Shown in pieces: positions 9,283 through 60,241 of a DNA stretch of 64,000 bases. This stretch comes from Bilabrum cf. latius (lineage: Eukaryota). The stretch is from positions 1,116,001 through 1,180,000 of the forward strand of contig OZ237745.1 in the NCBI GenBank assembly GCA_965178125.1. Reading direction: 5' to 3'. The translations under genes and the position numbers were made by a program. Positions within the stretch are counted from its first letter, which is position 1; the number at the start of each line of letters is the position of its first letter. The notes beneath the pieces were generated by a model. The model was not told the DNA's origin. It was given only the letters and a program-made list of their open reading frames with translations, and did not search any database.

Positions 9283-12200
9283 ATGTCTAGTAGGCCGTCA
9301 AAGTACTTTTAGCGAGCGCGGAGGGGAGCAAGGACGTCTCAGAGACCAGACGCCGGCAATTCTGCAACTAACGCAAGACTTGGGTCCAACTTAAAGCATG
9401 TATCATCAGTTTCACGCGGGGCGTCGGCCAGTGGAGCTTCTGGCAGCCCTAGCGGAGCGCTGCGGCCTGCCCATTTGAATGGGCGGATCCGAGATCTAGC
9501 GGGAGCCTCGCCGGCGGCAGCAGGTCCGGCGGTTTCATTTGTGCGGGAGCAACGCGTGGATATTGTCTCGCACCGGAGCCCTTCGCTGCCAGGGACCGGA
9601 TCGGCTGCGCCCAGACTGCCTGCCACTGTGTCACTGCCCGCTGCCCGCTCCAAATCCTCATCGAGGACCAGACTCAGCGCAGCGAGCAGCTCCGGGCCGG
9701 CCGGGTCCGATGGTATGCATGAGTCCTCGGGGACCCCTTCTGCGCTTAGCCAAGGGGCCTGCGCCCCCTCGGGGGGTGGCATCTTGCGGTCGCCAGGGCT
9801 CCCCAAGCGCGACCTCCGCGTTCGGTTTGCCGTGAGTGGAGTGGGTTGGACGCGGGATTGGGGCTGGGTAGCGCCCCTTGCTTTGCGACTGCCGCGCCCC
9901 TCGCTTGATTTGTCGCCGTTCAGCCGCTCGCTTGGCGCAAGTCTGCCCTTCCCTGACCCGCACCTCCCCAAAGTAGTCATGCTTCACGTTCGTTTCCCCT
10001 TTACACCGCAGGAGAGCGTCACGATCACCTCGGTGGACTCCCGCACGCCCACTAGGGATAGGAACAGGGGCGCTGGGGGGGTGTCGTCGTCGAGGTCCAG
10101 GACGGGGACGGCACGCATCGCGCCCCCTGCTGAGGACGGTGGCAGGGGCAAGCCGGGCAGCAGCAGCAGCAGCAGCAGCAAGGGAGGCATCCCGCGAACA
10201 AGAATCGGAGCCGGCGGGGGTGCTAGCAGAGCTAGCAGCGCCCAGCGACGCGCCGACGCAGCCGCTGACCTGGCCTCGCAGCAGGACGTGGAGGCGCTCT
10301 TCGCCGAGGCGAGGCCGCCCGTGCTGGCGACGCCTAGGCCCAGGCTAGCTGTTCTGGGCGGCAATGGCCCTCGCCTGGGCTCTGGCCATGGTAGCAGTGG
10401 TGCCAGTCGCAGCGCAGGTGCGGGATCAGCGTCCAGCAGCAGGGCTGGGGGCGGGTACTCGGGACCTGCTGCTGGAGAGCATCATCCTAGCAAGAAGCTA
10501 TCTCCGGGAGACCCCAGTATGGGAGGCCAGAGCCAGAGCAGGAGCAGGAGCAGGGGCAGCAAAAGAACGCAGGGTCGAGGAGGCAGGCTGCTGAGTGCGG
10601 CCCGACAGGCCGCGAACGCGTGGACAGGCGCAGGCGCAGATGCTTAGCCTCACAGCGTCACTGCTGCAGAAGCGCAGGATGATGCTAGCCCCCGTGCGCA
10701 GGCCAGAGGCACCACTTCGGCTTCGGCTCGGATGCAGCGAGAGCTCGGGTCGTCTTCCCCGAGCGCATGGGATCCCCAGGACAGCCCGGACCACGGCACG
10801 CGCGGAGGAAGAGGCAGACCAGCGCCCACTGCCTCTGCGGCGGGTGCGGGCCGCCGGGCACGCGGTGGTGCGCGCGGGACGAAGCTGTTCGCTGCCGCCG
10901 GTGGACAGCTAAGCCGTGATCTCGCCTTGACCGACGGCTAGCCGCAAGGGCAAGGGCTGCAGATCAGCAGCGCGTCCTCTGGGCAGGCGGCACAGCGCAC
11001 CGGCACAGGTGGTCCTAGGTCTGGCGGCCTCGTGGCCGGCTTGGACGACCTCAGCAGCCCTTCGAGTGCCATCAGCCAAGAAAGCGCCTCTTCTCTTGAA
11101 GGCAGCGCTGACATGGCCTCTCCGAAGCGGGCTAGCCCCGTCTTGACCGAGGACGCAAGCTAGCGGAGGCAGAGGTCGCCAAGGAAGCGGTCCCCCGGCC
11201 TCGCTTCCATCGTGTCGGCGGGGTCCTCTTCCAGCGCCGCCTCCTCGCCCGCATCGTTGGCGGGATGGGGAGACAGCGCGGCGGAGCCCGGCGCTTCCAC
11301 AGGATCAACCCGCGATGCGCCGTCGCCTCGGCGTGCGCAAGACAAGGGAAGCAGCAGCAGTAGCAAGGCAAGGCGGCGGCGGCAGCTGTCACCACAGGAT
11401 CTGTCGCCAACGAGCAGCGATGCAGATGCACCAAGCAGTGCTGACGCGGCCACTGCTCGGCGGCAGGCAAGACGCCACCGTGCTCTGGCTCGCGCGAGGC
11501 TGGAACAGGGGTAGGTGCAGGGGCAAGGTGGCCCAGCTTCAGGACAAAGCCAGACACCACCTCCTGCATCGTCTTTGCCACTGACTGCCCGCTAGAGGAG
11601 CCGAGCCGTGCCCCAGTCCCAGTCTCCATCGCAACGAGCAGCGCCCCCCTCGTCATCTGACGGCTCGGGGCCCAGCTCCAGGACATAGCTTGGCTTGGGC
11701 TCCCCGCAGCGCCCGAGGAATCTGCTCGCCGCTCTCGATCGAGAGGCAGCTGCGCCACGGCGACAACTGGGGGAGTCCAGAAAACGACATGAATCCGCTG
11801 CTACCAACGAGGCGCTAGAAGCCATGCAGCAGCGTCTCAGTACGAGCAGCGCCGCGGCTGCGCTAGCATGCTGGACAGGGCACGCGCACGCCTTGAGTGC
11901 TGGGATATTGGGGGCTGTGCCAGCCAGGGCGCACATGCAGCCGTGTAAAGTAGTCCGGCTGCGCTGCACCGAAACAGGCCACCCAGCGGAGCACTTCGCA
12001 GCAGTGGAGGCATCCATGGAGTGCGCAAGGGCGTTGGACTTCTGCCCGTCACGCAGTGCGCTCGCAGACTACCGATATGCTGCAGATTCGAGCGGGCCGA
12101 TCGACGGGACAGCTGAAGTGGCCCCTCCCACACCAGCCCAAGCGGCAGCCAGTGCTGCGTGGATCGATATTTCGTCTGAGGACGGCAGCGAGACCGGCCA

Positions 12201-14232
12201 GCAGGCAGCCGAGATCCGAATCGAGACTGCCCACGGCACTCACCGCTCGCACGACACCTCGCTGGCCGGCGCGGAGTGGCCGGATGGAGCTGTGAGCTGC
12301 CTCTTGCTATCTCCGCTGCTGCCTGCAGTCCCGGGATCTGGCACCGGCGCTGCATCAGCATCGGTTCACGCGAATTTGGTACCGGTTGGCTTGCACTAGC
12401 TCACGGCTGCACAGCCCAGCCAAAACCCAGGCTTGGTCCAGCCCGACGAGGCAGACTCGGTGGCGCTGGCTGAACAGCAAAACGCCAGAGCCTCATCGGC
12501 TGGGGAACAGCATGGGCCCACCAGCGGCGCCACTGATGTGCCCGCCTCTCCGCTCCAGTCTCGCGGGGCAGTGCCGTCTTGCTCCGCCGGGATGCTCGCC
12601 AGTCCCCTAGTGCGAGCCGCCCGCCGCAGCATGAGCAGGTCTCCCAGGTCGACGTCACTCGCTCCTTTCTCCTCTGATGCGGCGTGGCCCGTGGGCTCGG
12701 CTCGGCCGTCTGCAACCATTGCTGCCCATCGATTCACGGTGCGCGACCGTCCGAGCCGGGCGGCCCGCATGCGCGCCCAGGCTGCCCTATTGGAGATGGC
12801 AGCAGGCTCGGAGAGCGGCAGCAGCAGTGACTCGGAGAGTGCCAGTGGCAGCGAAGATGACGATGACACGGATGACGATGACGATGAGGAGGATGAAGAG
12901 TACGACGAGTACGATGCTGAGCTGAGTGCAGATGTGGTCGCCTAGCTCCACTGGACTGCAGCCGATGCGGGCGGAACTACCACAGGGCCAGGCCATCTGC
13001 TTGGCTCCGAAACTGCAGCCGATGCAGCGGCAGGAGGGCCTGCTGCGGTCACGGCCTAGGGTAGTCCCATGCAGCAAGCGGATGCGAGCTAGCTGTCACA
13101 GGGGAAGCAGTCGCTGGAGGACCGAAGTGAGTGGGGTGGGGACGCACAGGCCGTTGCCACTGCGGCATCGGTGTAGTAGGAAGCTCATTCACCGGGCGCT
13201 GCAGCAGTGCCCAGTGCACAAAGTCCCCTCCTGGCAGCTAGGCGCGGCTCAGCGGCCTCGCCGCACGGCTCCCCGTCGCTTGCACGGCTGCAGAAGCCCG
13301 GGCCAGCAGGCAGCGCGGATAGGCCGGTGCCGGTCCCCTCCGGCGCTACCGATGCAAAGCCGCCCCCAAGCCCAAGCAGCGGCAGCGACGAGGAGCGCCG
13401 AGGGATAGGCGGCGTCAGCAGCGCGGCAGGGGACGCGGGTGAGGCGCGCACAGACGGCCGTGACGATGGCAGTGAGCATGGCGGTGGCGTGAGCCGTGGC
13501 AGGAGAGGCAAGAAACGGCCCCGCCTGGTCATGGCCGTCGGGCACTCGCCTGTCGACGACACGGGCGACGAAAGTAGCGAAGACGAAGAGGAAGAGCAAG
13601 ACGACAAGCAAGACAACGGCAGAGAAGAAGCCAGTTCGCTTCCAGAGGAGCGGCCCATGAAGCGCAGGCGCAGGGCAGCAGCAGACGAGCAGCGCAACGA
13701 CAGAATCAGGGACACCAATCGCAGCGTGGGTGGACATGGCGGTGGTGACCCGGACAGCTCGAGCGGCACAGATTCTGACGATGGGGGTAATTCGGGATTA
13801 TCCAGGTCCAGCAATGCAGGCGAAATCGAACGGGCAGCCCGCTCAGTGCAGGACAGGCCGGGCAAGGACAAGGGACAGGAACCGAGAACGGGCAAGCGCA
13901 GGCCAGGGCAACATCAGGAGCGAGGCAGTGCACCGACGAGGGTCAGCTCTTCCCCAAGGCACAAGTCGGCGGGCAGAAACGAGGGGACGGGTGCAGCGAA
14001 TGGTGGCTCGGGGCAGGCAGCTGCAGCCACGACCAAGGACCATGAAGAGGATTTGGCGAATGCGAAGGGGAAGAGGAAGGGGAGGGGCGCGGGAAGGGGG
14101 GCGGCTGTGCACGTGCCACGCCGACCGAGGCGGCAGGCAGCCTCGCCCAAGGCCAGGGAGGCATTTGCGAACAGGAACTCCTTCCTGGGCACCTTCCCGC
14201 CCAAGGCCTCGGAGCAGGCGGTTGTGCTGTGA
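9283..14232 (+). CDS. Large (~1,650 aa) S/A/G/R-rich, probably disordered hypothetical protein (requires TAG=sense)
   Basis: ORFs at 9475, 10732, 11212, 11695, 12433 and 13207 share one frame. About 13 in-frame TAGs, including tandem TAG TAG at 13174-13179, with no TAA/TGA until TGA at 14230-14232. Start codon tentative. Confidence 0.72.
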
Positions 14233-14378: not shown

Positions 14379-15038
14379 TCACGTCCGTTTCAATTTAACT
14401 CCAATCATGTCTGCGTCCTCTCCCACCCCAGACTCGAAGAGGTCGGCCCGCCCGCTGTCGCGCAGGCACCGGACGGCTGCGAGCACTGTCCCGGCGTCCA
14501 GCCCATGGAACGAGGCATCGCTCGTCGTGGTCCCTTCCCGGAGCTCAAACACTGTCAGCACCGAACCAAACATATTTGTGCGCTGCGCATACTGGTATAT
14601 GGCGTCTGCCCACTCCGCCGGGGACTTGAAGTATATGCGGCAACGCAGCTTGGCGCTATCTTCCCATTCACCATTGCCCATGGCGACAACAAAGTCCATC
14701 ACTTTGCGAATTCCCGCTTCATCTAGTTTCCCTGCGCAAAAAAGTGCCAATTGATGCAAAGGTCGCCACATTTCAATGGCGACGCGGTCCAGAACGGCCA
14801 AAGGAAACAAGATATGCTGCTCACGATCTATTCTCTTATTCTCGAACAGCGGCCAGTCAAGCACGCTCATGCTTGTTTTTGCGTTTGCTTCGTGCCACTT
14901 AATTACAACGTCTCGCCATTCTTTCAGCTGCATCATCCTGACCTCGTCATTCGGCTGAATGGTGAAGAAAGGGGGGAAATTATAGGTAGGCGGCAACTCA
15001 AACTTGGCTTTCGCCGAGTCGGCTCCAGCACCAGCCAT
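14379..15038 (-). CDS. VPS25: ESCRT-II subunit VPS25; one 93-nt intron at 14732-14824
   Basis: PPTYNFPPFFTIQPN motif, LFENKRIDR|KLD, and SPAEWADAIYQY...VLTVFEL. Removing the GTGAGC...GCAG intron restores the family alignment. TGA stop. Confidence 0.93.
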   Translation of the reverse strand: MAGAGADSAKAKFELPPTYNFPPFFTIQPNDEVRMMQLKEWRDVVIKWHEANAKTSMSVLDWPLFENKRIDREQHILFPLAVLDRVAIEMWRPLHQLALFCAGKLDEAGIRKVMDFVVAMGNGEWEDSAKLRCRIYFKSPAEWADAIYQYAQRTNMFGSVLTVFELREGTTTSDASFHGLDAGTVLAAVRCLRDSGRADLFESGVGEDADMIGVKLKRT

Positions 15039-15227: not shown

Positions 15228-16061
15228 ATGTCAAAGATTGTGCTACCTGGTGACAAAGTTGGGAGTACTTACGACCTCGATAGCGGGCCTGGAACATTTG
15301 TTGTCGGATCAGACATTGTTGCCTCTCTTGCAGGCGAGCCAGTCGTTCTTCCCGCGTTGCCTGCAAGCTCCGCTGTTTCTAGGCCTTCGATAGGAGCTCA
15401 ATCAGCATCTGGATCAAGTGCACTTGCCACAGCTTCAATGAAGGGCATGATTGCAGTGCAGAGACCAAACCGAGTGGGCTCCGGCACAAGTATTCTGCCT
15501 GACGTTGGGGATGAAGTGCTTGGCAGAGTATCGAAGGCAGACGAACGGTAGTGTCGCATTGAGATTTTAGTTGTCCGGGGCCTTGCCGTAAAGGAGCCTC
15601 TCTAGGCTGTACTTCGGAAGGAAAACGTACGAGCCGCCGACATCGATCGCGTGCGATTAGAGGAGTGCTTCAGGCCGGGCGATGTTGTTAAGGCTCAAGT
15701 TGCTTCCATGGGAGATGCTCGTACATATCAATTGACGACAGTCGGGACCGACCTGGGCGTCATCCACGCTGAGGCTCCGGCAGAGACTGCGACCAGAGCT
15801 GGTCTCGCTGCGGACGCCTTCTCGTCGGGCCTCGGGCTGGCCACGAAGGGATCCTTCGCGCCCCGCGGCGCTTCCCTTGCCCCAGGCGGTGCCTCGCTGG
15901 TGGCAGTGAGTGGCGGCCTCATGGTGGAGCCCACCACTGGGAGCGAGCACCGCCGCAAGGTCGCTCGAGGGGCGGCGCCTCCAGCCGCACTGCGGGGCAT
16001 TGCCAGTGGTACTGCTGCCAGCGGCAGCGGCAGCGGGGAAAGCAAGCCGATGGCTACATAA
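15228..16061 (+). CDS. CSL4: Exosome complex component CSL4/EXOSC1 (two in-frame TAG)
   Basis: IVLPGD...GPGTFV N-domain; S1 domain LPDVGDEVLGRV...DER*CRIEILVV...EPL*AVLRKENVRAADID...CFRPGDVVKAQV...LGVI; C-terminal EHRRKVA. TAG at 15549 and 15603; TAA stop. Confidence 0.92.
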
Positions 16062-16243: not shown

Positions 16244-18466
16244 TCAGTCTGTAGGCCGCCGCCTGCAGTTGCCCCTGCCCACCGAGGCCATGGCTCGGCA
16301 CATGCCCACTGGCTGCCCGGAATCGATCACTCGGCGGACGAACCGCCAGTAGTTGCCCTCCACGGCTGCCCTTGGCTCGGCTGGATCTGTGGCATTCGCA
16401 GCAGCAGCAACTCCTCCTCCTCCACGAGTGGCGGTGGGCAAGGCATCGTCAGAGTCGTCCACCTCCGCCTCCCTCTCCCTGTCCCTGTTGTCTCGCTCCT
16501 CTGCTTCGCTCGTCGACACGGCGGCCTCTCTGCCCGCGGGTTCCCCAAGTTCCTGCTGCTAGATCTATTCTAGCAGGCGATCCCCCGCACCTGCACTCGG
16601 ACTTGCTTCACTCAGGTTGTCCGCGCATTCATCACCGTGCAAGGCTCCGCTCCCATAGCATCGTTTCCTTGCTGCAGGCACGCCTCCCGGCTCCGCCTCC
16701 GACTCCAGATCTCCAAGAAACAAGCCGGGGAGGCCCCCATAGGCCCGGCTGGGCAGCCTCCAGAAAGGCATCTTGGGCTTTGCGTCGTGCTTGGCCATGG
16801 CATGCGAGACCTCCGGGTGCCTGTCCGAGGCGCTGTGCAGGTCCCAGCAGCTGTCAGAGGCGCCCCCACCGGGGAGCAGCCCGCTCGGGTGGAAGCGGGT
16901 CGCGGCGGCATCGAGCCGGGCCAGCAGCAGCCTGGTCTCCTCCGATGCCTCCTTCCTCCAGGCGCCCACGCGGCCTTGGGTCAGCGGCTGCCTCACTTGG
17001 GATGCCCTGTACAGGCCGTGGTGCGTGAACTGCAGCGGGCTGGTGCCGGCCAACTGACCGGTGCCAAAAGCCTGGCCCTGGCCCTGGCCCTGGCCCTAAC
17101 CCTGACCCGAGCCCTAACCCGAGCCCTGGCCCTGCAGCAGCTGCGAGGGACTGAAGGTGGCCTTCCCGTTGGCCCTCCCGTCGCTGTCCCTCGGCAGCTC
17201 AGGCCTCAGCATCTTGGGATCGAAGGGAACACGCACCCCCCTGCTGGCCAGCTGCCTGCACAGCTCCCTCAGGACCAGCTAGGGCCGCGCGACCAGCCGC
17301 TCGTATACGACGGGAATGGCGGGTAGCGCCCGAGCTAGGGCTCCTCGAAATATGGGCGAGCGTGTCCAGCCCAGCGAGCGTTGCCCCTTGGACTTAACCG
17401 CGGAATGCGTTCTTGCCAAGAGGCGCGATTCAGGTTTTCCGCGCAACGCTCGACCGTCGTCGTTGCCCCACGCCATCCGGCGACCACGCCCGCGCCCCTG
17501 CTGCCCCTATTGCTCCTTTTCATTCCTCTGTACGTGCTCCTGCTTGCCGTGCCAAAGTTCACCGGCTCGCTGCACGCCATCCGCAGCGCCCCATCCCCCC
17601 TTGAGGCTGCTGCCGCCACTAAGCGGAGGCACACAGGCCAGGACGGCCGCTTCCTCCGTTGACCACGCCGGTGGCGGCCCCGCGATGGAAGGAATCTGCC
17701 GTGCTCCCGTCCATGGAGCCGCTGTGACGAGTGCGGCTGCCCTGCCGAGGGACTCCCAGGCGCCAAAGTGAAACTCCCGCGAGGAGATGAGGCGCCCGTG
17801 CTTCCCCTGCGGCGCCTGCGCGGCATCCACGCCGAGCATGCGCTTCATGAGCGAAAACGTTGTATCCATTGGGTCTCGTACAAGCACAACCGTCGCGGCA
17901 AGACGCCACCGGATCCGTGGGATGCGGAGCGCCTGCTGCTCCATGTGCTTGCTGCATCCGCCTGAGCCGAACGGGTAGTCATCCAGGTCCAAATTGTCTG
18001 CCGACCACTGAAGCAAACGCAGAAACTCGTCGTCATTAATGGTTTTCTTTGTCAAGACGACCGGTACATCCGCCTGAGTCTTTGGGTGCGAGCTCTGTCC
18101 TAACAGCGCCGTGCCGGCCGTCGTATTGCAATTCTGCGCATGGGCGGCCGTACTGCAGGGATGAAGCCACTCGCAAGGAACAAGGCCTACCTGTGGTGTT
18201 GCTGCATCCCTATGATGCTCCAGAATGCGAGAGCTGCCGCCAAGTAGACGTCGCAATAACGTGGATCCAGTGTGATGGAAAGCTACGATCAGCACCACCT
18301 TGCCCTCCAGTGGCGTTCCTGTTTCCGCATTGGAGGCAGGTTGTATAGTCAAGTTGCTGTGAGATTCGTCTGCCAGTCGCTAATCCTCGCCCGTTGCGAG
18401 CGCTAGAAGCCCCAACACCAAAAAGAGAGACGCCGATCTTGACACGGCAGAATGACTGTTTAACAT
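16244..18466 (-). CDS. Sulfotransferase-like protein with N-terminal signal/anchor (~740 aa; requires TAG=sense)
   Basis: Hydrophobic N-terminus, 5'-PSB-like VLIVAFHHTGSTLLRRLLG, 3'-PB-like VVLVRDPMDTTFS, and VVYERLVARP*LVLRELC. Seven TAGs (18380, 17507, 17279, 17114, 17096, 16565, 16559); TGA stop. Confidence 0.75.
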
Positions 18467-19088
18467 GCGCCTCCAGCCCAAAAACAAGTGTCCCACCAAA
18501 GGTAACGACCGCACACGCGATCTTGGCAAGGTATAGGTCGCCCAGACAAGCTGCAGACAGTTGATCGCCCTGCGTCGACCGGTGTGCGCGGCTCCGAATA
18601 CGCTACCTGCCAGTTTGCTCACAACGCCTCTGGCTTCTTCAAAATCGTTTAATCAACCCCGTAAAACCTACAGAGAAGACAAACTACCACCACAAATGGG
18701 TCTCCTTGCTAGAATTGGTTCTTCGGGACTCACCTATGGGCGGCGTGCGGTAGGCCCCTTGCGCGGCTGTGGGAGGTTGTGGTGGCGTGGATCGCACCGC
18801 ATGCGAGCGATGCAGCTGAGGGTGGAGTGGCTATCGATGAGGTCCAGAAATACGCGCAGCGGGCAGGCGGTGGCCCTGGTAATGCCTGGCGTACAAGCCC
18901 GTGGGGCTGCCTGACGTGGAGACGGTGGGTATGGCTCGGCTTGGCACTAGGCGGGTGCTCCACGGCCAAGCCCGCGGAGGGTCAGGTGGTGGAGGGCCAA
19001 GAGACGGCGGGTCTTGCGCTGGACGGCCTGCGGGCGTGTGGCAGACATATGGCGCTGGCGCGATTCCGCCAGTCTGCAATTGTCACAC

Positions 19089-19137
19089 ACCACATTCCAG
19101 GGGGACCTTCGAAATGGAGGTCCCGCTGGAATGTGGT
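19089..19137. repeat. Intergenic near-perfect inverted repeat/hairpin
   Basis: ACCACATTCCAG-G-GGGACCT...AGGTCCC-G-CTGGAATGTGGT: 12-bp and 7-bp arms separated by one mismatch. Confidence 0.75.
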
Positions 19138-19400
19138 ATGTGGTGTGTGAGAATTTGGAGCAGCCATGTCGTCGGATTGAATGATAGATTATATTATGCA
19201 AATTTGCGTCACTGCAGAATCAGTACGGTACCGGAAGCTGCCAATCCCCGACAAGCCAAGGTACAGCTGCTGCACGGCGAAAAGTGCTCGTTACATTGCA
19301 ACTCTGTCGGTTGAGCTCTGCACGTCATCAACCCGCCGATTGGGGCAGTACTGCGACAGCAGCATACCTTGCACGTACAAATCGCTTCCTCCGTGCTAAA

Positions 19401-20356
19401 ATGGCAGCGTCATCTACCGATGTCCCACTGTTAGACAAAGAGGAGGCGCAGAAAATATATGTTTGGATCGACGCAATCCCCCTCACCCGACCGAAACGAA
19501 ACATCACAAGGGATTTTAGCGATGGCGGTAAGACCAACTCGTATGCTTACCATGAATGTTGTGTGTTGGTGCGGCCATTGCCTCGCTGGGAACCTTCGGG
19601 CGCGCGTTCGATGCACGCGGCACATGAGCCAGGTTCTCGCTGCCTTCCCTGTCCTTCGCAGTCTTGGTAGCTGAAGTGGTCCATGCGTACTTCCCGAAAC
19701 TTGTGCAGTTGCACAACTACAGTGCGGCTAACAGCGTGAAGCAGAAAATGTACAACTGGGGCACGCTCAACAAGAAGGTGTTCAAGCGAATGGGGTTCGA
19801 CATCAAGCGCCACGAGATCGAAGCTATTGTAAATGGGGTGCCTGGCATGGTTGAGGTTATTTTGATGCGATTGCAAGCCCGCATGAGCGAGATTCGAGCC
19901 GCGAAGAGGCGAAAAGGGGCGTCTGGAGGGTCGGGGTCCTTCGGGGGCGGAACGAGCGGGGCTTCGGCAGCGCGACCCGGTCCCGCAGGTGGCGCTACAG
20001 TTGGGTCGATGATGAGCCCAGGAAGCATGGGGGGAAGCGGCGGTCGCGCTGCCCTTGCCGCGCCCGCTCCCGCCGCCTACGACGGCGCTGGCCCAGCAGC
20101 CATGGGCGGCATGGACGGGGGCTCCCGCGCCCCAGCCGGCGGGGGGGCCGACATGTCCCTTCTCGCTGAGAAGGAGCGGCGCATCCAGGAGCTGGAGGAG
20201 ATGAACGAGTTCATGGAGCTCAAGATCAAGAAGCTGGAGCAGCTGGTGCAGCTGAAGGACTCGAGGATCCACAACCTGCAGGCTCGGCTGCAGCAGATGC
20301 AGATGGGGGGAGGCGGGGGCGGGCCCATGCCCGCGGGTCCCTCGGGCGGGCGGTGA
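19401..20356 (+). CDS. SPEF1: Sperm flagellar protein 1 (SPEF1/CLAMP) homolog; CH_2 domain plus C-terminal coiled coil; intron 19528-19661
   Basis: YVWIDAIPLTRPKRNITRDFSDG|VLVAEVVHAYFPKLVQLHNY...KMYNWGTLNKKV, and C-terminal ELKIKKLEQLVQLKDSRI; GTAAG...GCAG intron; TGA stop. Confidence 0.93.
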
Positions 20357-20634: not shown

Positions 20635-23600
20635 TCACACTGGGCGTCTAAGCTTCTTGGGCTTGGGCTTGCTGGGCTTGGGCTGAGCCGGCTGACCACT
20701 GCCAGCACCCGCGCCCTTGCCTTGACTTTCCACCGCCTGTACTCCGGACCCAGACCCTGAGCCAGCTCCGCCTCGGCCTCGGCCTCCGCCCTTCATTGAG
20801 CGCCCCCCCCTGCCTCCTTGCCCTCCCCCCTGCTGCCTGCGGCCCGGCCTCGGCTTTTCATTCTGCCCCCCGCTGCCTCCTCGCCCTCCCCCCTGCTGCC
20901 TGCGGCCCGGCCTCGGCTTCTCATTCTGCCCCCCGCTGCCTTCGCCATCAACTTGACCCTGCACGCGCACGTCCCCGCCCTCGCCCAAGCCCGCCGCGGC
21001 GCTACGCACCAACGAGGCCCGCCCCTCGCCCCGCCTCTCCCCGGACATTGCAGCAGCCACGAAGGAACTCACGCTAGCACCAGCACCGGCACCGCCGCTG
21101 TCATCGTGAGGGATGCGCCGCACGATGCGCAGCTCGGGCTCCGGCTCGGGCTGGGACCGGGGCGGCCGGTCCTGCTGCCTCTCGTCACGGCCTCGACCGC
21201 CGCTCTCATTCTGCCCCTTCTGCCCCTTCTGCTGCTTGTGCCTGTCACGTCGGTTTCCCGCACCAGCACGACCGGACTCGCCACGAGCCCGCTGGCTGCC
21301 CCGCTAGCTGCCTCCTGGTCCGTCTCTCTAGTTGCGCCGGTTGTTCCCCCGGCTGTTCCCTCGGCCGTTCTTCTTGTCCTCGCTGGTGCTCGTGCCGCCG
21401 CGCCCTCGCTCCCGCACCGCTCCTCTGCTCCCCCCGTCGGCCCGTTCCTGCCACCTCTCGCGGGTATCTCGCCCTCTCATTCCTCCTAAGCTTCCCCTTC
21501 CCCGCTCACCAGCATAGTCCCTGTCCAACTGCCTGGGAACCCTACCGCCCGTACTTCCACTGCTTCCACGTTGCCCCCTGTCTCTGTCTCCCCGTCCGCC
21601 GCTGCCCTCCTCCCACCTGCGAGCGGACCCACGCTCGAGCTCACGGTCACGGTCACGGTCACGGTCACGATCGCGGCCATTCCACTCGCGCGGGCCATCC
21701 TCCCGAGCGGCTTGCCTACCCCAATCTTTGCGAATGTCGGTGTCCCTGCCCCTGCTTTCCCCATCGCGCTACCGCCCATCCCCCCTGCCGGTACCTCGTC
21801 CATCTCCACCCCCACCCCCACTCCCACCAACAGCAACAGCAACAGCAACAGCACTGCCCTGCTACTTGCTGCGTTTGTTGGCGCTGCTGCCCCTCGTGTC
21901 GCTGTCACCGAAGCTGCGTCTCCAGTCGGTCACACCGGCGTGCTCGCTCCCTCCGCTGCCCCCCTGTGACTCCACGCTGCGCTCACCCCGCCCCTGCTCT
22001 GTTCCTTTGTCACTTCGACCTCCGGCTTCGGGTTCTCGAGTCCCAGCACCCGATGCACCGTTCGTGCTTGCCTGCTCCCGCCCCCAGCCGCGAAGCTGCG
22101 CACCTGCCGCAGGACGGGCGGAGGCCATCTGCCTCGGCTGCCCCACCGCCACTACCCCGCTCGCAGCTGGTGGAGGTGGGCGGAGCGAGCCGGCAGCTGC
22201 CACGCGAGGCACGAGGACTGCCGGCACGGGGGGCGGAGGGGCTAGCCCGCCGCCAGCAACCGCTTTCGCGCCAGCGCCGGCGCCGGCTGCCTGGCCCGCA
22301 TACCCTCTCCTGAAGTCGAAATCCCTGGCGCCTTGCCCGACTGGCACACCCATCGCAGGCACGCCTGGTGCTGCTACTCCTACAGCTGATCCGAAAGCAG
22401 CGGGTTGCCGCTACACGTTGGACGAGGAGGACGAGGAGGACCCGTGCAAGGACGAGGAGGACGAGGAGGACCCGTGCAAGGACGAGGAGGCCATCGCACC
22501 GCTCGGTCCAGCGGCTCCACTCCCCGCACCCATGCCCGCGCCCGAATCCCTGCGGTACTACGGTTGCCTGAAGTCTCTAGCTGCGACGCCCGTGGCCGTG
22601 CCCTGGTGGTCAAAGGCAGGGGCAGAGCGCCAGCCAGACCTTGAGTCGGATCCCACCGCAGTTCCGTGCGCGCGGTGCTGTCTGGGCTCCCTTGGCACCT
22701 GCCCCTGCCTCTGTTCCTGCCCCTGCCTCTGACCCTGGCTGCCACTGTCACGCGCAGCTCCCCCTCCCAACGAGCCATCACGAGCAGACCAGCCCTGCGG
22801 TGCTGCAGAGCGGCCCCTGTCTCTGGCTCCGACTGGTCCTCGGGTGCCGCCACTCCCACTCCCACTCCCACTCCCACTCCCTGTCCCACTCCCTGTCCCT
22901 CTAACTCTCCCGCCCACTCGCTGCCACTCCCTACCCCCGCCCCTGTCCCCGCCCCTGTCCCCGCCCCTGTCCCCGCCCCTGTCCCCGCCCCTGTCCCCGC
23001 CCCTGTCCCCGCCCCTGCCCCTGTCCACGCCCCTGTCCCTGTCCCTGCCCCAGTCTCGGGCCGACTTGTCCTGACGGTAGTCTACCGACAGAGGAGCCAG
23101 AGGGGCGCCACCAGCAGTGCCAGCTACAGAGCCGCCCTGGCCATCCGGGGGGTGGGTGGTCCCATGTGGAGGCATTCGTGACGACCGTGATGATGAAGAG
23201 TAAGACGAGGACGAGGAGGTGACGGTGGGGTGAACTGCCATGCTGGGAGGGTGCACCGGCCCCGGCTCGGCTCTGTCGGGAGCCGCGGGGTCGTCCAGAA
23301 GGTCGGCGAGCACGTCATACTCGGCGCTGCGGCTGACGTCTGCGCCAGCGTCGGTTCTTCGCCGCTTTGAGGCAGCTGTGCTGGACGCCTGGCCAGCGGC
23401 ACCGGTGGATTGGACGGTAGCAGCACCGGAGCGGCCACGCTTTGAGCCGGCAGGTGTCGGTGAGATCACAAAACCATGCTCGTCGACCTGCTGCTGTGCG
23501 CCTCCACGCGCCTGTTGCGACGAATGTGCACTTGTCAGCTTGTTGGATTGTCTGGCGCTTTCTTTGTCGACCTGCCGCTCCAGCAGCGAGGCCGATCGTT

Positions 23601-24216
23601 CGCAAATGGCGCCCTGCCGCTTCCATGCAGCAACACACCGCTTCGCGTGATCAAGGCTCTTTTCTGGCTGCCGACGCAACGCAATCTACAGCATTGGCAG
23701 CAGGGCCCAGCGCCAGACAGCGATGGGGTCTCTAGCCTCCAATACTTCCTTGCTGCTGGCCGGCATAGAGCGAACAGCCTCGGGTGTCCACGGCAGCAGC
23801 GTTGAACAGTCCCCTGTCGGTTGGATCGCGGCGATACTTCGCGGGGTTCTGTGTCTTGAACCATCAGGTTTAAGGTTGGTCTTGTACTGCTCATGTCTCC
23901 ACGCTAGTACCTCGTGCACAGCGAAGAGACCCGCCATCCGTCTCTATTGCAGCGATCGCCGACCTTTCTCGCTTTCTTTGGCTTCGCGCTCGAGCCAGTG
24001 CTTGCTTTGCTTCCGAATTCTATCGATAGCTGAAGCCATCGTGTGGCGGTGGGACACTATTGCTTCTCGAAGCTGCTTGACAACATCCTTGTCAACCGAT
24101 GCTTTTTGCACTGCTTTAGTGACAACCTTGACGTCCTCCGGGAAATTAGATGTTTCTATGTGAAGCTACTACCTAAATGATGCTTCGCATGGCGACGTTC
24201 CTTGTTTCGAGGACAT
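20635..24216 (-). CDS. CID (RNAPII CTD-interacting)-like N-terminus plus long RG/RD/GGDR-rich tail (~1,190 aa; requires TAG=sense)
   Basis: One frame from ATG 24216 to TGA 20635 with about 10 TAGs, including tandem 24166/24169. The helical N-terminus (RRMAGLFAVHEVL...AKRCVAAWKRQGAI) resembles CID helices. Domain call is by eye. Confidence 0.68.
20810..20941. repeat. Coding 63-bp tandem duplication
   Basis: Two near-identical units encoding GSGGQNEKPRPGRRQQGGG on the minus strand. Confidence 0.85.
22935..23050. repeat. Coding 12-bp minisatellite (CCCTGTCCCCGC)n
   Basis: Direct tandem array; encodes (GGDR)n on the minus strand. Confidence 0.9.
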
Positions 24217-50462: not shown

Positions 50463-53400
50463 TCACCTAGCTTCCGGATCAAATGAAAGGGCAAGCACGA
50501 TTGTCCCAGCCCCAATCGATTCATCGCCAGGCTTACGCAGCTCGACCTCGACCGGCACGAAGCTCGAGGCAGCAGCACCCAGGAGCATGCCCAATCCAAG
50601 GCTTCCCTCAGCGATGACATCATCCGATGAGAACCTGTCATAATCCAACACCTCGATTGCCAGAGTTGCATTGGAAGCGTCCTGCACCTAGAGATCGAAC
50701 ACGGGTCCTCCATCCTTCCCATCGTCCCATTGAGGATTCAATGTGCCATCTCGGCGCTCGGACACGGCGGGCTCTCCTGGACCCGCACCGGTCCCACGAG
50801 TCTGTAGTCGCACGTATGGGTCCGCAGATCCCATGAGGTCTGCACGGGGCAGGCCCTCTGCGTGGTGCAATCGGATGTGAACCACGCCGGCCGTGGCCGG
50901 TGCTGGCGCTGGAGCTGGAGCTGGCGCTGGAGCTGGCGCTGGAGCTGGCGCTGGAGCTGGCGCTGGCGCTGGCGCTGGCCCTGGCGCTGGCGCTGGAGCT
51001 GGCGCTGGCGCTGGAGCTGGCGCTGGCGCTGGCGCTGGCGCTGGCGCTGGCGCTGGAGCTGGCGCTGGTTCGGATTGACCTCCTTGCCTCTGGTTCGCAG
51101 ATGCATGCCTCTTCCCCTGCCCCTGCCCCTGCCCCTGCCCCTGCCCGTTTGGAAGGAATTTCATCGCTATCGTGAGCACGCCTCCGTCCCCGCCCGCGCC
51201 AGTCCTGCCCTTGGACAGCTGCTGCTGGCAGACGGTCCACTCCCCGGATGCGGACCCTCGCAAGGCCCCGGGCAGGGCCTCAGCAATTGCCTGCTCCGCG
51301 CTGCACAACTCGTCGTCACCAGTCGCACCGTCGTGGTCAAACACGCGCATCCGCACTCGCGCCTTCCGCACGTCCAGCACCGGCAGCCGGAACTCGGGCG
51401 GGTCACCAACCCTGTCCCACTCGGGGTCCTGGGTGCCGTGCTGCGTGTCCGACTGCACCCACGGGCAGCCGTCCTCGTCCACGTTGAACTTGACGTACGG
51501 GTCCGAGGAGCCGAAGAGGTCTCCCTTTGGCAGGCCCTTGCCGTTGTGCAGCCGAAGCAGCAGGCTCCCCGGGCCGGGGATCGGAGCCTCGCTGCCAGCT
51601 GCACCCGCCGTTTTTTCCTGCGATTCTTTTCCTGCGGGCAGTGCTCCCGACGATGACGCACCTTTTCCTGCTGGCAGTGCTCCCGACGATGACGCACCTT
51701 CGTGGGCAGGGACAGGGGCAGGGGCAGGAGCTGCTCTTGTGCTGACAGCCTCCTCCTCCTCGTCCTCCTCTTCCTCTGCCTTCTCCCTGCCCCGGCTCTC
51801 ATTTCCCCCTACTTTGATGTTCCCCGCCTTGTTCTCTTCGCCCAATACAGAGACTGTAGCTGCAGGCTGCTCTACAGAGCCACCATGCGAGGCTGCAGGC
51901 TACTCTACAGAGCCACCATGCGAGGCTGCAGGCTGCTCTACAGAGCCACCATGCGAGGCTTCATCTTCACCTGCTCCCGCCTTTGCATCCTCCGTGTCAG
52001 CCGGTGCGTCTCTCGTGACGTCGCTGCCATTCTCACCACCTTCCCCGTCGCCACCAGCGCCAGCCGCATCGCTGGAAGCTGCCCACTCCGAGGGCAAAGG
52101 CGAGAAACGAAGCGACACAGCGAGGCTGCCCCCGCCCGTCGCCTCAGGCTCGGACCCTCGCGCCAGAGACAGTTCCACCGGAACGAAAGCAGTCTCGCCC
52201 ACGGACCCGACAAGGAACCCCAGCTCGCGATCCGCCCCGCACAGCTGGTCATCCCCGGTGTATCTATCGTGGTCGTACACCTGCACGCGCAGCTTGGCTC
52301 TGCTGGCGTCTTTCACGGGCAGCTAAAACTCGGGTGCGGGCTGGCCTGCGTCCCACCTTGGGTCCTGCGTGTTGTCCCGCTTCTCGGAGGTCACCCACGG
52401 GCAGCCGTCCTCGTCCACGTTGAACTTGACGTACGGGTCCGAGGAGCCGATGGTGTCCGAGTCGGGCAGGCCCTCGGCGTGGTGCAGGCGGATGTGCAGC
52501 GTGCCGCTCGCAGGGCCATTATGAGGAGCCGATGGTGTTGGGGGCTGACTTGAGGCAGCGTCTGCTGTCCCTGTCCCTGTCCCTGTTCCTGCCCCTGTGC
52601 CAGCGCCAGCGCCGGTTGCAGGAGACAGCACCTCGCTGCGGCCCTCGTCCACCAGCGGCTGTCCAGCGGGAGACACTGCTGGCTTCCTGCTGGTTGCAAC
52701 CGGCTGCTCCTGTTCTCCACCGGTGGCGGAAGCGACGGCCGGCGTGTCATCGCCGGCATCGTCGAAGCCATCCTCGCTGTACCCGTCGCCACTGCCCTGC
52801 TCGCTTCCATTGGCACCGTCTGCATCCTTGGCACTGTCTGCATCCTGCTCAGAGTGGAGTACAGCAGCAGCAGCAGCAGGGGGGTCCTGACTGGGTGGCT
52901 CCGGACGTGGTGACCCGGGGGGCGGGCTCTCTGCCGCCAACCGGGCTATCAGGCCTCGGGACCCAGAGGCTGAGGGAGAGGGAGAGGGAGAGGGGGAGTC
53001 TCCTCCAACAGGCTGGACGAGGTACTCTGGGGAGGCGCTGTCCGCGCCCGCAACAAAGCCACCCTCCTCCTCCGGTCCACCGCGCTGAGAGGGCAAAGAG
53101 GGAGAAGCGGCGGGCTCATAGGCCTCCGCGACGGGAGCCGGCGTTCCCTCGGGAGCCACTGGCAGCCGCGGCTCCCCATCGCCGGCAAGCCCATTCGCGT
53201 TCGGCAGCCGAGTCAAGTCTCGCGCGCTGCGGGCGCGCCGACCGGGCAGCGGCGGCCTGTTGCCGCTGCCCGGTCGCTGCGGCTGCGGCGCGAGCAGGTC
53301 CTCGTCATCCTCTTCGTCACCGTCATCGTCACTGTCCAGTAGGCTGAGCCCGCCGCCCGCGCGCCCCCCCGTCCGCCCGATGCCGAGGCCCTCCGCGGAC

Positions 53401-56400
53401 CCATCCCCCCCACCTTGAGCGCCGGGCTTGGCATTGGTCCCTGACTTGGCCCTCCGGCGCTTCGAGAGGGTATCGTTCGCGCTGAGAGGACGAGAGCGCG
53501 CGGACTGTGGCCTCCTCCTCGCGCTGGCCGGGCGCCGGCCCGAGCCCTCCGCCGTGCTGGGCCGCTTGAACCGCTCCAGGTGGTCAAAGTTCTCGTCCAC
53601 CTGAAAGCGGGCCAGGGAGCCGCCCCCCTTCACGCCAGTTTGACCACCACCTGCCCCGCCTTGCTCGTCGCTGCCTCGACTCACCTCCTCCTGATCCTCG
53701 GACCTACTAGTCCGCAGGATTCCCGCGAGCGGGCCGCCGCCCTGCTCCGCTTCCTCCCCATCCGGGTTGCGCCCATGCCTATGCCCAGAGGCAGAGCCAG
53801 GAGGCCCGCTGCCATCGTCCCCTCCGAACACGGCGGCGAAGTCTTTCTCGAACTGCTCTTTTTCTTCCTTGCTTGCGGGCTTGCCCGCGCTCGATGCCAC
53901 TCCGCCCGTGTTGAGAGGAGCATCTTCCTCCTCTTCCTCTTCCTCCTCTTCCTCTTCCTCTTCCTCCTCTTCCTCCTACACCGCCTCCTGCTACCCCGCC
54001 TGCTCATACTCTTCAAGTTGCTTCTGCCTTTGCTCAACTCCGTCCTCCGGGGGTTGCCCTTCTACAGCACCTCTATCTTTGTCGACCTGCAGCTCCCCAC
54101 CACCAGCACCAGCACCAGCGCGCTCGCTTTCACCACCGCGTTTGTCGCCCCCTTTCCTCTCTGCATCGCTGTTGCCGCCATTCCCACTAGTCTGCTCCTG
54201 CTCCTGTAGCAGGGAGGGCCGCGGGGCCGCGGGTGCATCGCCTTGCGGTGCAGCCAGGGCGTTCTCGGACGCTGCTCCCAACTCGTCGGCGCCTGCGTCA
54301 TCATTGTCGGCCTCGTCGTCCTCGTCCGACAGGGCGGGGTGGCCCTGCTGCTGCCTCGACTGCTCATCCACTGCCACGCCCTGCTCCTGCCCCAGCTCTC
54401 CAGCACCCAGCCGGTCCTGCCCCACCCTATCTTCATCTTCATCGCTGGGCACGTGGCCCCTGGGCACCCGGCCCTCTCGCACCCTCCCCCTCCCCCTCTG
54501 CTCCAGCTCCTCCTGCCGGCCGTACACCGCCTCCGCCCCCCGCATCAATGCAGAGGTGGGGCGGGAGGACGGAGCCGAGGAGGAGCCTCGGGACCTGCTA
54601 CTGCCGCCCCCAGGCCCACGGCCTCGACCACGGCCTCGCCTGCGTGAGGGCGACGAGGACGGGGAGCCACGCCGCGCCTGCACCTGGGAGATAGGCCTGC
54701 CCCTGCCCCTACCCCTGCCCCTGCCCCTGCTGCCCCTGGGCGCACCTCTCGCCGGGGAAGACAGCGTCTCCTCCCCCTCTCCCCCCCCCTCCCCGTCAAG
54801 GAGAGGCCCGAACGCGTCCCCCACGTCAGGTCCCTCTTCCCCCGGCCCCATGCTCGGGTCCCAGCTCATGCGGCCCTCCAGCGCGGCGCGCTCCGCCTGC
54901 GAGGGGGAGAGCCGACGGGGCGGGTGCAGGTCTCCGTATCCGCGGCGCCTGCCCCTTGCGGAACCTCCCAGGGGCCCGGCACCGGCGGCCTCCGCGATGG
55001 CTTGCACCCGCAGCCGTCGGTTGCGGAGGTCCGCGCGGGCCCGGGCGATCATCTAGTCGATCTCGCGGACTGCCTCCGCCGCGCGACCGTCGATGGGCAG
55101 GCCGTCGCCGGCGTGCCCTCCCGATTCCACTCCTACTGGACCTCCCACTGGACCTCGACCGTGCCCTTGCCCTTGCCCTTGCCCACCTCCCCCGTACTGG
55201 CCGGGCCTCTGTTCTCCCACCCACTCCGCCTCCTCGAGCGCCCGCCGGTACCTGCCGCTCCCACTACCACCGCTCGCGCCCATTTCCGATTCCGGGTCGT
55301 CCTGGATGCCCAGAGCGGCGGCCTCTTCGTCGTAGGCCTCCTTCGAGGGGGGGGGCTCCCCCCGGGGATATCCCCCCCCAGCACCGGGGTGCTCCCCGAT
55401 GGACGGGAGTGCAGACCCGCGGCCCCCATCCTCAGGCTGCCTCCACCGTTCCCGTCCCTCCTATTCGTAGTCCGCCGCCGCCACGGGATCCGTGCCGCGC
55501 GGCGGAAGGCCCCTGCCCCGCATGCCCCTGCGGCTCCGAGACCTGCTCCCGCCCCGCCCATCCCTTGTTCCCTGGGACCCTGCCACGGAGGGCAGAGCCG
55601 ATGCGGGCCGGCCTCGCTTGCCGCGGCTTTGCCTCGTCCTGCGGCGCCGGTTCTACGAAACACCTCCGGCTGCAGCAGCAGGGGCTGTGCCACCCAGACC
55701 CACGCCCGCACGGGCGGCGAGCCGGGGCCCCCTTCTTCCCGAAGCGAATTCAGACAGTCTCTTGGCGTGCTTGCGGTTTTCCTTGGCCTCCTTGCGCAGC
55801 TTCCTGGCCGAGTAGATGGGCCCGGTGGCTTCGATCCGCTTCAGCATGCTCTGCTTTTTGTGAAAGGTAGGAGATTTGGGAATCGCACGGATATGGGTTT
55901 GCTAAGAATGCATAGATTTTGTTTGGAGCCAGCGATGACCGCCATTGATACACGGGGGACTTGGCTGGAGCGACAGCAGTCAAGTTGCCGTCCACCAGCG
56001 GAGGCAAGGCAGACGGTTCGGCACGGCTGCGCTTGAGCAGGGACCACGCCGATTCTCACCTGGTTCTCGGCAGTGATTTTCTAAAGCCGCTTTCTTCGCT
56101 GTTCAATGTTCATCGAACGCGGCTTGGTGCGCCTGCGGTTATCGACGCTGGCCGGCCCGCGGATGATCGCGTGCATTCGGGTCAGCAGCAGCAAGTTCTG
56201 CCGCTCGATCTCGGCGTAGCGCTCTGCCATTTGCATTTCTTTCTTTGGATTTCGCCTGACGGCCCCAGCTGTCGCGGGTCGTGTCCTCCCGGCGGGTGGA
56301 CGCCTAGGCAAGGCGCTGCGCGGACGCTGGCTAACCTTGGGCCCGCCCGCGATTGGGGGCATCCCCGCAACAGTTTCTGTTGGGGGACCAGTATCAACGG

Positions 56401-59268: not shown

Positions 59269-59456
59269 GTCTGAATGCTTCCAGATCCATTGATTTGGCT
59301 TATTTTCCCCAATCTGCCGTTCGTTCGGATAGCGTTGCTGTCGCTGTGGCACCGCGGCTGTGCGGTGGTGGTTGTGTGAAGGCAGACGTAGGCAGGATTG
59401 TCAAAATGTCAAAAAATTGTTAATACATAATGTCATGCCTCGCCGCAATCACGAAA

Positions 59457-60102
59457 TCAGAACTGCCGCCCGTACTGGCGGCCCTCCCTGAGCTCCTTTG
59501 CCTTGGTCTCCTCCGCGTGCAGGCCCCACATCTGCTGGTATTCCGCCGGGATCTCCCTTGCAGCCTGCGATGTCGAGAAAACAATCAAGATAGGAAGAAC
59601 GCAGCGTGAGTGTACCTACGCCAAAAGCTGAAGCCTGTGCTGTGCGGTTGGGAGTGACTTACGGTCTGCTTTCGTCGGATTGGGAAAGTCTTTGCGCCAA
59701 GCTCCCAAAACACAAAGTACACAGCAATCAGGGTGCCTGCAAGCCACATCAATGCCTTTTCAGCTGGCATGCTGGGGATATCGTAATCAAGCATCATCTC
59801 GGGCGCCACGCCATCCATCCAGACCAAATCGCGCTCCTCCGGCAGCTGCGGGGATAGACGACATTGCGACAATCAATCACGCGCGAGAGTACTAGCTAAA
59901 TTAATAATTCAAGTGATACGACGGCATATTGGGGGCTTACCGGTCCCTTGGGCTGAGGCAGTCTATGAAAGTGGGGATCGATCTGGCCCTTGGGCAGGTA
60001 GGGGCCGGTGGCGTGGTGGGCACCTCCACGAAGCAGCCCACCCCGAGCTACAGATGCTATCCTAAGAGTTCGAGAGGTCGCTGCTCTCAATCGACCCGCC
60101 AT
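59457..60102 (-). CDS. NDUFB8: Mitochondrial complex I subunit NDUFB8/ASHI-like; introns 59846-59940 and 59565-59662
   Basis: Arg-rich presequence, LPEERDLVWMDGVAPEMMLD motif resembling plant/algal NDUFB8, one TM helix; two phase-0 GTAAG...CAG introns; TGA stop. Confidence 0.75.
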
Positions 60103-60241
60103 GACCGGTAGATAAGCAGATTTAGGCTGCGGAGCCTGGCCCAATCCGATTTTTGTAGTAATGGAACGCTACATTTGACACAGCAACTTGCTCGCGAGGC
60201 ATAGTTTGCCCTGCTGCCGGCGATCTGTGATCGGATACGCC

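Follow-up and report, generated by a model that had tools for sequence, protein, structure and literature searches.

A 33-bp coding repeat with CAG, TAG, and CAG at one codon in a GC-rich eukaryote that seems to read TAG as glutamine

A triple 33-bp repeat in a gene for three C2 domains carries CAG, TAG, and CAG at one and the same codon, which we attribute to a eukaryote that seems to read TAG as glutamine. The window, i.e., the whole 64-kb stretch of DNA analyzed here, very probably belongs to the nuclear genome of a GC-rich eukaryote that uses UAG as an ordinary sense codon for Gln and UAA and UGA as stops (the pattern of NCBI table 15). A preliminary description had read the TAG of the repeat as Gln. 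We support the translation of TAG as Gln, mostly from comparisons of CSL4, of VPS25, and of a relative's contig (L001), which lie beyond the evidence given in that description. The features are collected in Table 1. CFAP97 and SPEF1-like genes are also present in the window.

Table 1. Positions of the genes, domains, repeats, and codons discussed in the text (numbering of the window)
Feature	Coordinates	Strand	Basis
Three-C2-domain gene, minimum coding frame	50466..55052	-	ATG at 55052 to codon before TGA 50463-50465
C2 domain 1, in-frame TAG 52323-52325	52164..52502	-	Pfam; PDB alignment
C2 domain 2, without TAG	51156..51566	-	Pfam
C2 domain 3, in-frame TAG 50688-50690	50481..50885	-	Pfam; PDB alignment
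Three 33-bp tandem units, SHGGSVE-x-PAA each	51859..51957	-	Tandem Repeats Finder, unit-by-unit comparison, translation
In-frame TAG of the middle unit (cta on + strand)	51900..51902	-	CAG at equivalent codon of units 1 and 3
Second TAG/CAG case, sulfotransferase-like gene	17096..17125	-	Codon comparison
Exosome CSL4/EXOSC1 gene, TAGs 15549-15551 and 15603-15605 in S1/CSL4 domain, ends TAA	15225..16058	+	Pfam, PDB
VPS25 (ESCRT-II) gene, one intron	14382..15038	-	Homologue comparison
CH-domain (SPEF1-like) gene exon	19628..20353	+	Pfam; L001 alignment
Histone H4 gene (one of three), ends ...GFGG then TAA	49965..50276	+	Conserved C-terminus

UAG is translated in the window. When TAG is made a sense codon, ORFs of 2892, 1838, 1776, 1663, 1494, 1227, and 1161 aa appear, compared with a standard-code maximum of 1053 aa. 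Making TAA sense leaves the ORF lengths almost unchanged from the standard code, and making TGA sense gives a maximum of just 1208, though TGA is twice as frequent. Counting codons in the 15 long ORFs, we find 68 in-frame TAGs per 15390 codons and 388 per 76890 out of frame; these ORFs run from stop to stop (TGA/TAA), so some TAGs near the 5′ ends may be untranslated. The in-frame density is in line with that out of frame, and thus TAG is not avoided. It makes up ~10% of the Gln codons (68 of 697), and the reassignment looks old enough for the frequency of TAG in coding frames to have become neutral by drift. Conserved domains align ungapped across one TAG each in C2 domains 1 and 3 and across two in CSL4. 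TAG is also present in transcripts: two GT-AG introns are bridged by contigs of the X5 and X6 runs, and a poly-T end is present on one contig of X5. The X5 contigs span the TAGs at 53991, 60554, 61535, 63170, and 63464 without a differing letter.

UAA and UGA terminate. The H4 gene in Table 1 ends ...GFGG-TAA, showing that TAA is still a terminator, and all 12 histone genes end at TGA or TAA (TAA for the three H4 and three H2A genes, TGA for all H3 and H2B genes). Twelve of the 15 long ORFs end at TGA and three at TAA, while in L001, TGA ends each of the five genes whose stop is visible. At about ten C-termini fixed by homology, no TAG terminator was found; these are few genes, and ORFs defined by TGA/TAA ends hide such cases. 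We tried the UAR=Gln code (NCBI table 6) and rejected it, because H4 and H2A end at TAA and the ORF spectrum with TAA as sense is essentially that of the standard code. Other such codes suggest by analogy that a cognate tRNA-Gln with the anticodon CUA would decode UAG and that eRF1 would no longer recognize it. tRNA genes were sought with ARAGORN in the window, L001, and L002, and none turned up; a search of the window with Rfam at gathering thresholds was likewise empty, and three Pfam scans of the window's long ORFs and the two VPS25 exons gave no match to eRF1.

The minimum frame of the C2 gene comprises 1529 codons with five TAG, no TGA, and no TAA; from stop to stop, the frame reaches 55979 and holds nine TAGs. 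In the other five frames, TGA and TAA together occur at 0.011 per codon, from which 16.8 would be expected in the C2 frame (P(0) = 5e-8). It is the whole frame free of TGA and TAA, rather than the single TAG of the repeat, that is beyond chance. Synaptotagmin C2 domains align without a gap across the TAG of domain 1, at whose position domain 2 carries R. The PDB alignment of domain 3 is likewise ungapped across its TAG, where proline stands at the corresponding position of synaptotagmins and of the other two domains of this gene, which speaks against Gln. Also against Gln, a ~92% identical relative (run X8) has GAG at the TAG of domain 1 (52325 A>C; one contig). The preliminary description had placed the repeat TAG upstream of two C2 domains, and the Pfam matches of domains 2 and 3 confirm this; the TAG within the last of them and the third domain upstream are additions to it. 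Searching for protein homologues of the C2 gene with the C-terminal 619 aa and with a 1095-aa piece, we obtained low-complexity chance matches or nothing; the 1095-aa piece was scored on residues 470-760 (near lengths) and 552-760 (shorter lengths). Apparent splicing at many joints in this gene, with sides of 20-23 letters, was rejected as repeat artefacts, as the joints had non-intron ends and lay at simple repeats.

The repeat falls within the linker that separates C2 domain 1 from C2 domain 2. Tandem Repeats Finder reports it at 51859-51960 with a period of 33, 3.1 copies, 97% matches, and a score of 197. Placing the units 51859-51891, 51892-51924, and 51925-51957 side by side, we find a single difference, the + strand base 51902, which reads G/A/G. 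The minus-strand frame runs ...EDEA SHGGSVEQPAA SHGGSVE(TAG)PAA SHGGSVEQPAA TVSV..., and the CAG/TAG/CAG pattern described earlier is therefore borne out. We propose that the 33-bp repeat was recently triplicated and that the middle unit may then have taken a C-to-T transition, CAG to TAG. If UAG is Gln, this change is synonymous, so SHGGSVEQPAA would be read three times and translation would continue into two more C2 domains.

The same description had also argued that the CAG>TAG change is silent and that TAG is hence Gln. TAG as Gln holds by the other evidence, whereas the repeat itself does not prove the silence. Taken alone, the repeat is weak evidence for glutamine. A disordered linker would tolerate many replacements, and CAG>TAG is the commonest one-step route to TAG whatever its meaning. 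Each unit allows 99 single-base changes, of which 3 create TAG by our count from the unit codons, and a young repeat could gain one by chance from one substitution. Base 51902 is the reading of the assembly alone. Logan contigs are expected to break within a 33-bp triple repeat, variant or not. Comparing the window with Logan contigs, we found no listed read-derived contig that spans 51889-51930, and 51900-51902 is absent from the recorded differences, among 40 of 906. No RNA was found among the listed sequencing runs that carry window sequence. The repeat offers a convenient test peptide for proteomics, spanning GGSVEQPAASHGGSVEQPAA.

A second tandem repeat with TAG opposite CAG occurs in the sulfotransferase-like gene. 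It reads GGC TCG GGT TAG / GGC TCG GGT CAG / GGT TAG and continues with four GGC CAG units, and the TAG-versus-CAG pair lies at 17102-17125. When all in-frame TAGs were checked for copies within the window (15 bases per side, at most 5 mismatches in total), no third case was found besides these two. By eye, the residues within two positions of the TAGs left Q and E undecided.

Homologues of conserved genes are more telling. Both CSL4 TAGs (15549 and 15603) are Q in the 64-68% identical orthologue P0008, which is that of L001. Among 150 homologues, the first column is led by Q (Q 41, L 21, F 19, A 18 ... S 4, E 1). The second column is headed by S rather than Q, which counts against Gln (S 31, Q 19, P 17, R 14, K 13, E 12, and L 0). 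The CSL4 fragments P0009 (96% identical) and P0007 (92%) in the database break exactly at the two TAG positions.

L001 is an 8.7-kb metagenome contig of a relative, syntenic with the window at 13.4-20.3 kb, and it carries in-frame TAGs of its own at positions other than those of the window. Its TAGs stand opposite CAG or CAA of the window in perfectly conserved contexts of the CSL4, sulfotransferase-like, CH-domain, and VPS25 genes. The Q in ...VRMMQLKEW... of VPS25 is TAG in L001 and Q in the window, human, and yeast. Similarly, the Q in ...FPKLVQLHNYS... of the CH gene is TAG in L001, with 12/12 flanking residues identical. The window-L001 alignment has 1430 ungapped columns at 61% identity and 22 TAG positions, a small sample of partner residues (Q 7, R 3, S 2, G 2, E 2, A 2, N 1, W 1, D 1, and P 1). 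In good context (at least 6 identical of 12 ungapped flanking columns), the 11 partners are Q 6, E 2, N 1, D 1, and A 1, and in best context (at least 9 identical), the six are Q 5 and N 1. A non-Q partner at 15/22 positions, including E twice in good context, weighs against Gln. The BLOSUM62 sums for Q versus E are 33 versus 16 over all positions and 33 versus 23 in good context. Judged from these homologous sequences, the partner residue of TAG is mainly Gln.

These comparisons bear on whether TAG could encode another amino acid, mainly Glu, or else Ser or Leu, with the CAG>TAG of the repeat as a tolerated replacement in the linker. We consider this unlikely. In good context, Glu ranks second among the partners (2/11), the X8 relative has GAG in C2 domain 1, a run of 17 E directly follows one TAG, and the TAG of RRP12 faces an E of the human protein, a point against Gln that comes from a very weak alignment of 0.9 bits. 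For Ser, one may cite the second CSL4 column (31/150) and the TCG that neighbors TAG in the GS/GQ repeat at 17096..17125; Glu, Ser, and Leu codes for UAG are all on record in the portion of PMC11687900 consulted. However, the ratio of Q to E rises from 7:2 at all positions and 6:2 in good context to 5:0 in best context, and Q leads E in BLOSUM62 sum by 10 to 17 half-bits. Ser is the partner at 2/22 TAG positions, both in poor context, and Leu at 0/22. The first CSL4 column (E 1 and S 4 against Q 41 of 150) and the VPS25 site, which is Q in three distant species, also favor Gln, and neither Ser, Leu, nor Glu matches both CSL4 columns as well as Q does.

Even with Gln as its meaning within genes, TAG might be dual and terminate at some gene ends depending on context, with the result that some of the protein might stop at 51900-51902. 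The stop codons of Condylostoma and some karyorelicts are context-dependent. Ambiguous codes are on record (PMC4967479 and 10.1101/2022.04.12.488043, abstracts), and ORFs defined by TGA/TAA ends would hide a TAG terminator in a sample of only 64 kb. Yet the C-termini fixed by homology all lie at TGA or TAA without an earlier TAG at the conserved end. This holds for the conserved ends of four histone types in 12 copies, for RRP12, which stops at TGA/TAA where the human protein also ends in the alignment, and for the VPS25, CH, sulfotransferase-like, and LC1663 genes, in both the window and L001. Two complete C2 domains also follow in frame after the TAG at 51900. We regard a dual meaning as very unlikely. 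Under the standard code, the repeat TAG would have to be a nonsense mutation that arose recently, damage in a pseudogene, or a mistake in assembly or base calling, as a one-base difference in a perfect repeat, known from the assembly, might indeed be. This we find scarcely credible, since the 15 long ORFs contain their 68 in-frame TAGs without TGA or TAA, including conserved domains of housekeeping genes such as CSL4. In close relatives, the fragments P0009 and P0007 are interrupted precisely where CSL4 has its two TAGs, and the more distant L001 shows the same TAG habit at different positions.

UAG as Gln, our preferred reading, has consequences for annotation and for the history of the code. 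A standard-code annotation of this genome would break most long genes at TAG, and the database already shows such breaks in the CSL4 fragments of close relatives. Public data contain at least three diverged organisms of this kind, namely the window organism, the ~92% identical X8 relative, and the L001 organism (65-84% nucleotide identity in genes). L001 indicates that the code is common to organisms at species-level divergence; as the code is shared, naming the organisms would make it possible to set limits on when the reassignment took place. It is quite possible, although we stop short of favoring it, that an undescribed GC-rich, flagellum-bearing eukaryote lineage evolved UAG=Gln with UAA/UGA=stop independently of Iotanema and ciliates. 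In the literature outside subscription journals, we found no eukaryote with UAG=Gln beyond these two. Nuclear reassignments of UAG only are rare, with a handful of lineages named in the parts of the literature at hand, and each new case tests the idea of a mechanistic coupling of UAG and UAA through eRF1.

Among known codes, the closest is that of the fornicate Iotanema spirale, in which UAG is Gln and UAA/UGA are stops (Panek et al. 2017, PMC5304391, as far as the text available covers it). In both, UAG alone is reassigned, Gln is assigned by homologue comparison, UAA/UGA end genes, and no UAG terminator is seen. The Iotanema case, in the same portion of that text, draws on transcripts in the hundreds and on an eRF1 whose GTS motif is altered, whereas ours draws on 64 kb and one 8.7-kb L001 contig. 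A T32G change in eRF1 is reported for Iotanema. With a GC content of 0.54-0.72 per 2 kb, the window genome is GC-rich, which sets it apart from Iotanema. UAG=Gln is also used by the ciliate Protocruzia tuzeti and by phyllopharyngean ciliates, and there, as here, UAG gains the meaning Gln and UAA stays a stop (PMC11687900, from the passages accessible). Nothing ciliate-like was seen in our DNA, however; its genes lie on a long GC-rich contig and have GT-AG introns of ~95 nt. UAR=Gln (NCBI table 6) is listed for many ciliates, ulvophycean green algae, Hexamita, Streblomastix, and Amoeboaphelidium in the available part of PMC11687900. Those codes resemble ours in turning a stop into Gln, one step from CAG/CAA, but TAA terminates here.

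UAG alone has also been reassigned to Leu in the rhizarian exLh and to Ser in the green alga Scotinosphaera, and the ciliate PL0344 has UAG=Glu with UAA=Lys (PMC11687900, PMC5304391, and PMC10553269, each in the extracts used). Glu for UAG is found in Blastocrithidia as well (PMC11687900, same extracts). As those extracts describe exLh, Scotinosphaera, and PL0344, UAG is uncoupled from UAA and freely used inside genes, as it is here. In contrast to the Leu, Ser, and Glu of these three, the partners of TAG in our alignment are L at 0/22, S at 2/22, and E at 2/22 positions, against Q at 7/22. A change of this type in the genetic code, though rare, has been described before.

Performing a Tandem Repeats Finder search, we found a repeat of period 33 bp at 51859-51960 (3.1 copies, 97% matches, score 197) in the low-complexity linker of a three-C2-domain gene (Pfam PF00168, E = 1.1e-38, three stretches). 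As assembled, the full units (51859-91, 51892-924 and 51925-57) differ solely at + strand base 51902, which is G, A and G, respectively. In the minus-strand frame of the gene, they read SHGGSVE-CAG-PAA, SHGGSVE-TAG-PAA and SHGGSVE-CAG-PAA. The unit-by-unit comparison and translation thus bear out the preliminary description, which had CAG/TAG/CAG at one codon of a triple repeat, with the TAG upstream of two C2 domains; domains 2 and 3 both lie downstream. It had also taken the CAG>TAG change as silent and TAG hence as Gln. Here, Gln itself is supported by homologues, but the repeat illustrates the reading rather than proving it. Since CAG>TAG is the commonest one-step path to TAG under any meaning, and a disordered linker surrounds the site, the repeat by itself could not tell us the amino acid meaning of TAG. 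A second neighbouring pair, GGC TCG GGT TAG beside GGC TCG GGT CAG, was found in the sulfotransferase-like gene.

Features of the window, with strand where assigned
Feature	Position	Strand	Remarks
C2 domain 1	52164-52502	minus	Pfam PF00168; TAG at 52323-25
C2 domain 2	51156-51566	minus	Pfam PF00168
C2 domain 3	50481-50885	minus	Pfam PF00168; TAG at 50688-90
Low-complexity ORF	9241-14229		1663 aa, 14 TAG; C-terminus conserved in L001, a metagenome contig of a relative
Low-complexity ORF	20638-24318		1227 aa, 10 TAG
Low-complexity ORF	3-2468		822 aa, 7 TAG
MIP (aquaporin) ORF	6873-8678	minus	602 aa; two tandem MIP stretches (PF00230, E = 8.1e-39); GC3 0.83, zero TAG
Longest ORF	27226-35901		2892 aa, 4 TAG
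VPS25 intron	14733-14819	minus	approximate bounds
Histone clusters	2659-5096, 44574-47277, 47836-50276		H3, H4, H2A and H2B, three each, in divergent pairs
Small gene	59412-60108	minus	well covered; TGA stop; poly(A) site near 59412
Its introns	59564-59661, 59846-59940	minus	canonical GT-AG; 98 and 95 nt

The C2 gene frame shows that TAG is translated. All nine stop-like codons between 55904 and 50688 were TAG, and TGA appeared first at 50463. The safest part of this frame (ATG 55052 to the end) has 1529 codons with 5 TAG, 0 TGA and 0 TAA, while the remaining five frames of the identical DNA hold 80 TGA and 4 TAA in 7641 codons. This would predict 16.8 TGA plus TAA in the coding frame, and the probability of observing none is therefore 5e-8. 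Across the window, taking TAG as sense gave ORFs of 2892, 1838, 1776, 1663, 1494, 1227 and 1161 aa, against a standard-code maximum of 1053. Taking TAA as sense left the ORF lengths nearly unaltered, and taking TGA as sense raised the maximum to just 1208, despite TGA being twice as frequent as TAG. The TAGs in C2 domains 1 and 3, and the two in the exosome subunit CSL4 (15549 and 15603, both within its S1/CSL4 domain), fall in ungapped alignments of these conserved domains to solved structures. In 15 long ORFs, TAG was equally dense in frame (68 per 15390 codons) and out of frame (388 per 76890); therefore, the coding sequence does not avoid TAG. Taken as Gln, TAG makes up 68 of the 697 Gln codons in these ORFs.

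The genes with the highest GC3 hold the fewest TAGs, as in the longest ORF. The three low-complexity ORFs, for which Pfam returned no family, have flat GC over the three codon positions and are devoid of TGA and TAA. The VPS25 intron is apparently in frame and stop-free, and the stop-to-stop ORF runs through it; it was recognised solely via the L001 comparison and Pfam profile positions.

TGA and TAA terminate. Among the 12 histone genes, H3 (3/3) and H2B (3/3) end in TGA, and H4 (...GFGG, 3/3) and H2A (3/3) in TAA. The 15 long ORFs, which are defined by these stops, end in TGA (12) or TAA (3), and all five visible gene ends of L001 are TGA. A conserved palindrome, GGTGTT CAATTA AACACC followed by ACCA, lies 3' of H4 and H2A; H3 is followed by a shorter one. 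Both resemble histone 3' stem-loops, though Rfam at gathering score gave no match to them.

An exhaustive HMMER search with CSL4 returned three close matches. Two are fragments from close relatives: P0009 (96% identity) has its C-terminal end immediately before the first CSL4 TAG, and P0007 (92%) begins just past the second. The third, P0008 (68%), covers both positions with Q at each. For the residue read at TAG, we consider the CSL4 data decisive. Among the best 150 homologues, the first column held Q 41, L 21, F 19, A 18 and M 13, down to S 4 and E 1; the second held S 31, Q 19, P 17, R 14, K 13 and E 12.

P0008 maps to L001 (8719 bp), which is collinear with 13.4-20.3 kb of the window; the shared genes are the long low-complexity gene (its C-terminus), VPS25, CSL4, and the sulfotransferase-like and CH-domain genes. 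The synteny is interrupted by a 602-aa UNC-93-like gene (PF05978, E = 2.6e-17) at L001 5645-7450 (minus), between the latter two genes; window 18650-19400 is without a counterpart. L001 genes carry their own in-frame TAGs. Of the 1430 columns aligned without gaps (61% identity), 22 held a TAG, 6 from the window and 16 from L001; opposite them stood Q 7, R 3, S 2, G 2, E 2, A 2, N 1, W 1, D 1 and P 1. In good context (12 ungapped flanking columns with at least 6 identical), the 11 partners were Q 6, E 2, N 1, D 1 and A 1. In the best context (at least 9/12 identical), five of six were Q, and one was N. BLOSUM62 sums also placed Q first (33 vs 16 for E over all positions; 33 vs 23 in good context). 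At the L001 VPS25 TAG (...VRMM-TAG-LKEW...), the window, human and yeast VPS25 all have Q. The comparative evidence thus supports the translation of TAG as Gln.

Some observations point away from Gln. A relative in sequencing run X8 (~92% identical; the run is labelled as protist metagenome) has GAG at the C2 domain 1 TAG in one contig, among the 40 of 906 differences listed; if TAG is Gln, this would be a Gln/Glu replacement. The RRP12 TAG stands opposite E of human RRP12 in a weak alignment (0.9 bits). Synaptotagmins have S, D, K or E opposite the C2 domain 1 TAG; the domain 3 TAG is matched by proline, both in synaptotagmins and in the gene's other two domains. Non-Q partners make up 15 of the 22 aligned positions, in line with the 61% overall identity. 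In this small sample, none of the misfit partners appears to support a specific rival. Codes with UAG as Glu, Ser or Leu are on record besides UAG as Gln (PMC11687900); these variants do not fit the window.

Contigs from runs X5 and X6 join across both introns of the small minus-strand gene, and at 59412 one X5 contig has a loose end of poly-T. Transcript-derived sequence is thus present in these runs, although the run-kind labels are guesses. Five TAGs (53991, 60554, 61535, 63170 and 63464) are spanned by X5 contigs with zero differing letters, which argues against editing of TAG in the mRNA insofar as the contigs represent RNA. The product of the small gene may resemble a small mitochondrial complex-I subunit.

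Translation of UAG as Gln would involve a cognate tRNA-Gln(CUA) and an eRF1 with weakened UAG recognition, by analogy with the cases described in PMC5304391. No tRNA gene was found in the window or L001, and three Pfam scans of the window ORFs gave no eRF1 match. The window organism is GC-rich with short GT-AG introns and canonical histone clusters, and carries the flagellar genes CFAP97 and a SPEF1-like CH domain. Our literature search, with most subscription journals outside its coverage, turned up no other eukaryotes with UAG as Gln and UAA/UGA as stop beyond those named below, and the chances that the lineage of the window organism is previously unreported are roughly even. The code with both UAA and UAG as Gln is ruled out because TAA terminates in the window. 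Codon use in the window instead corresponds to NCBI table 15, described in PMC5304391 and PMC11687900 for the nuclear genomes of Iotanema spirale, Protocruzia tuzeti and phyllopharyngean ciliates.
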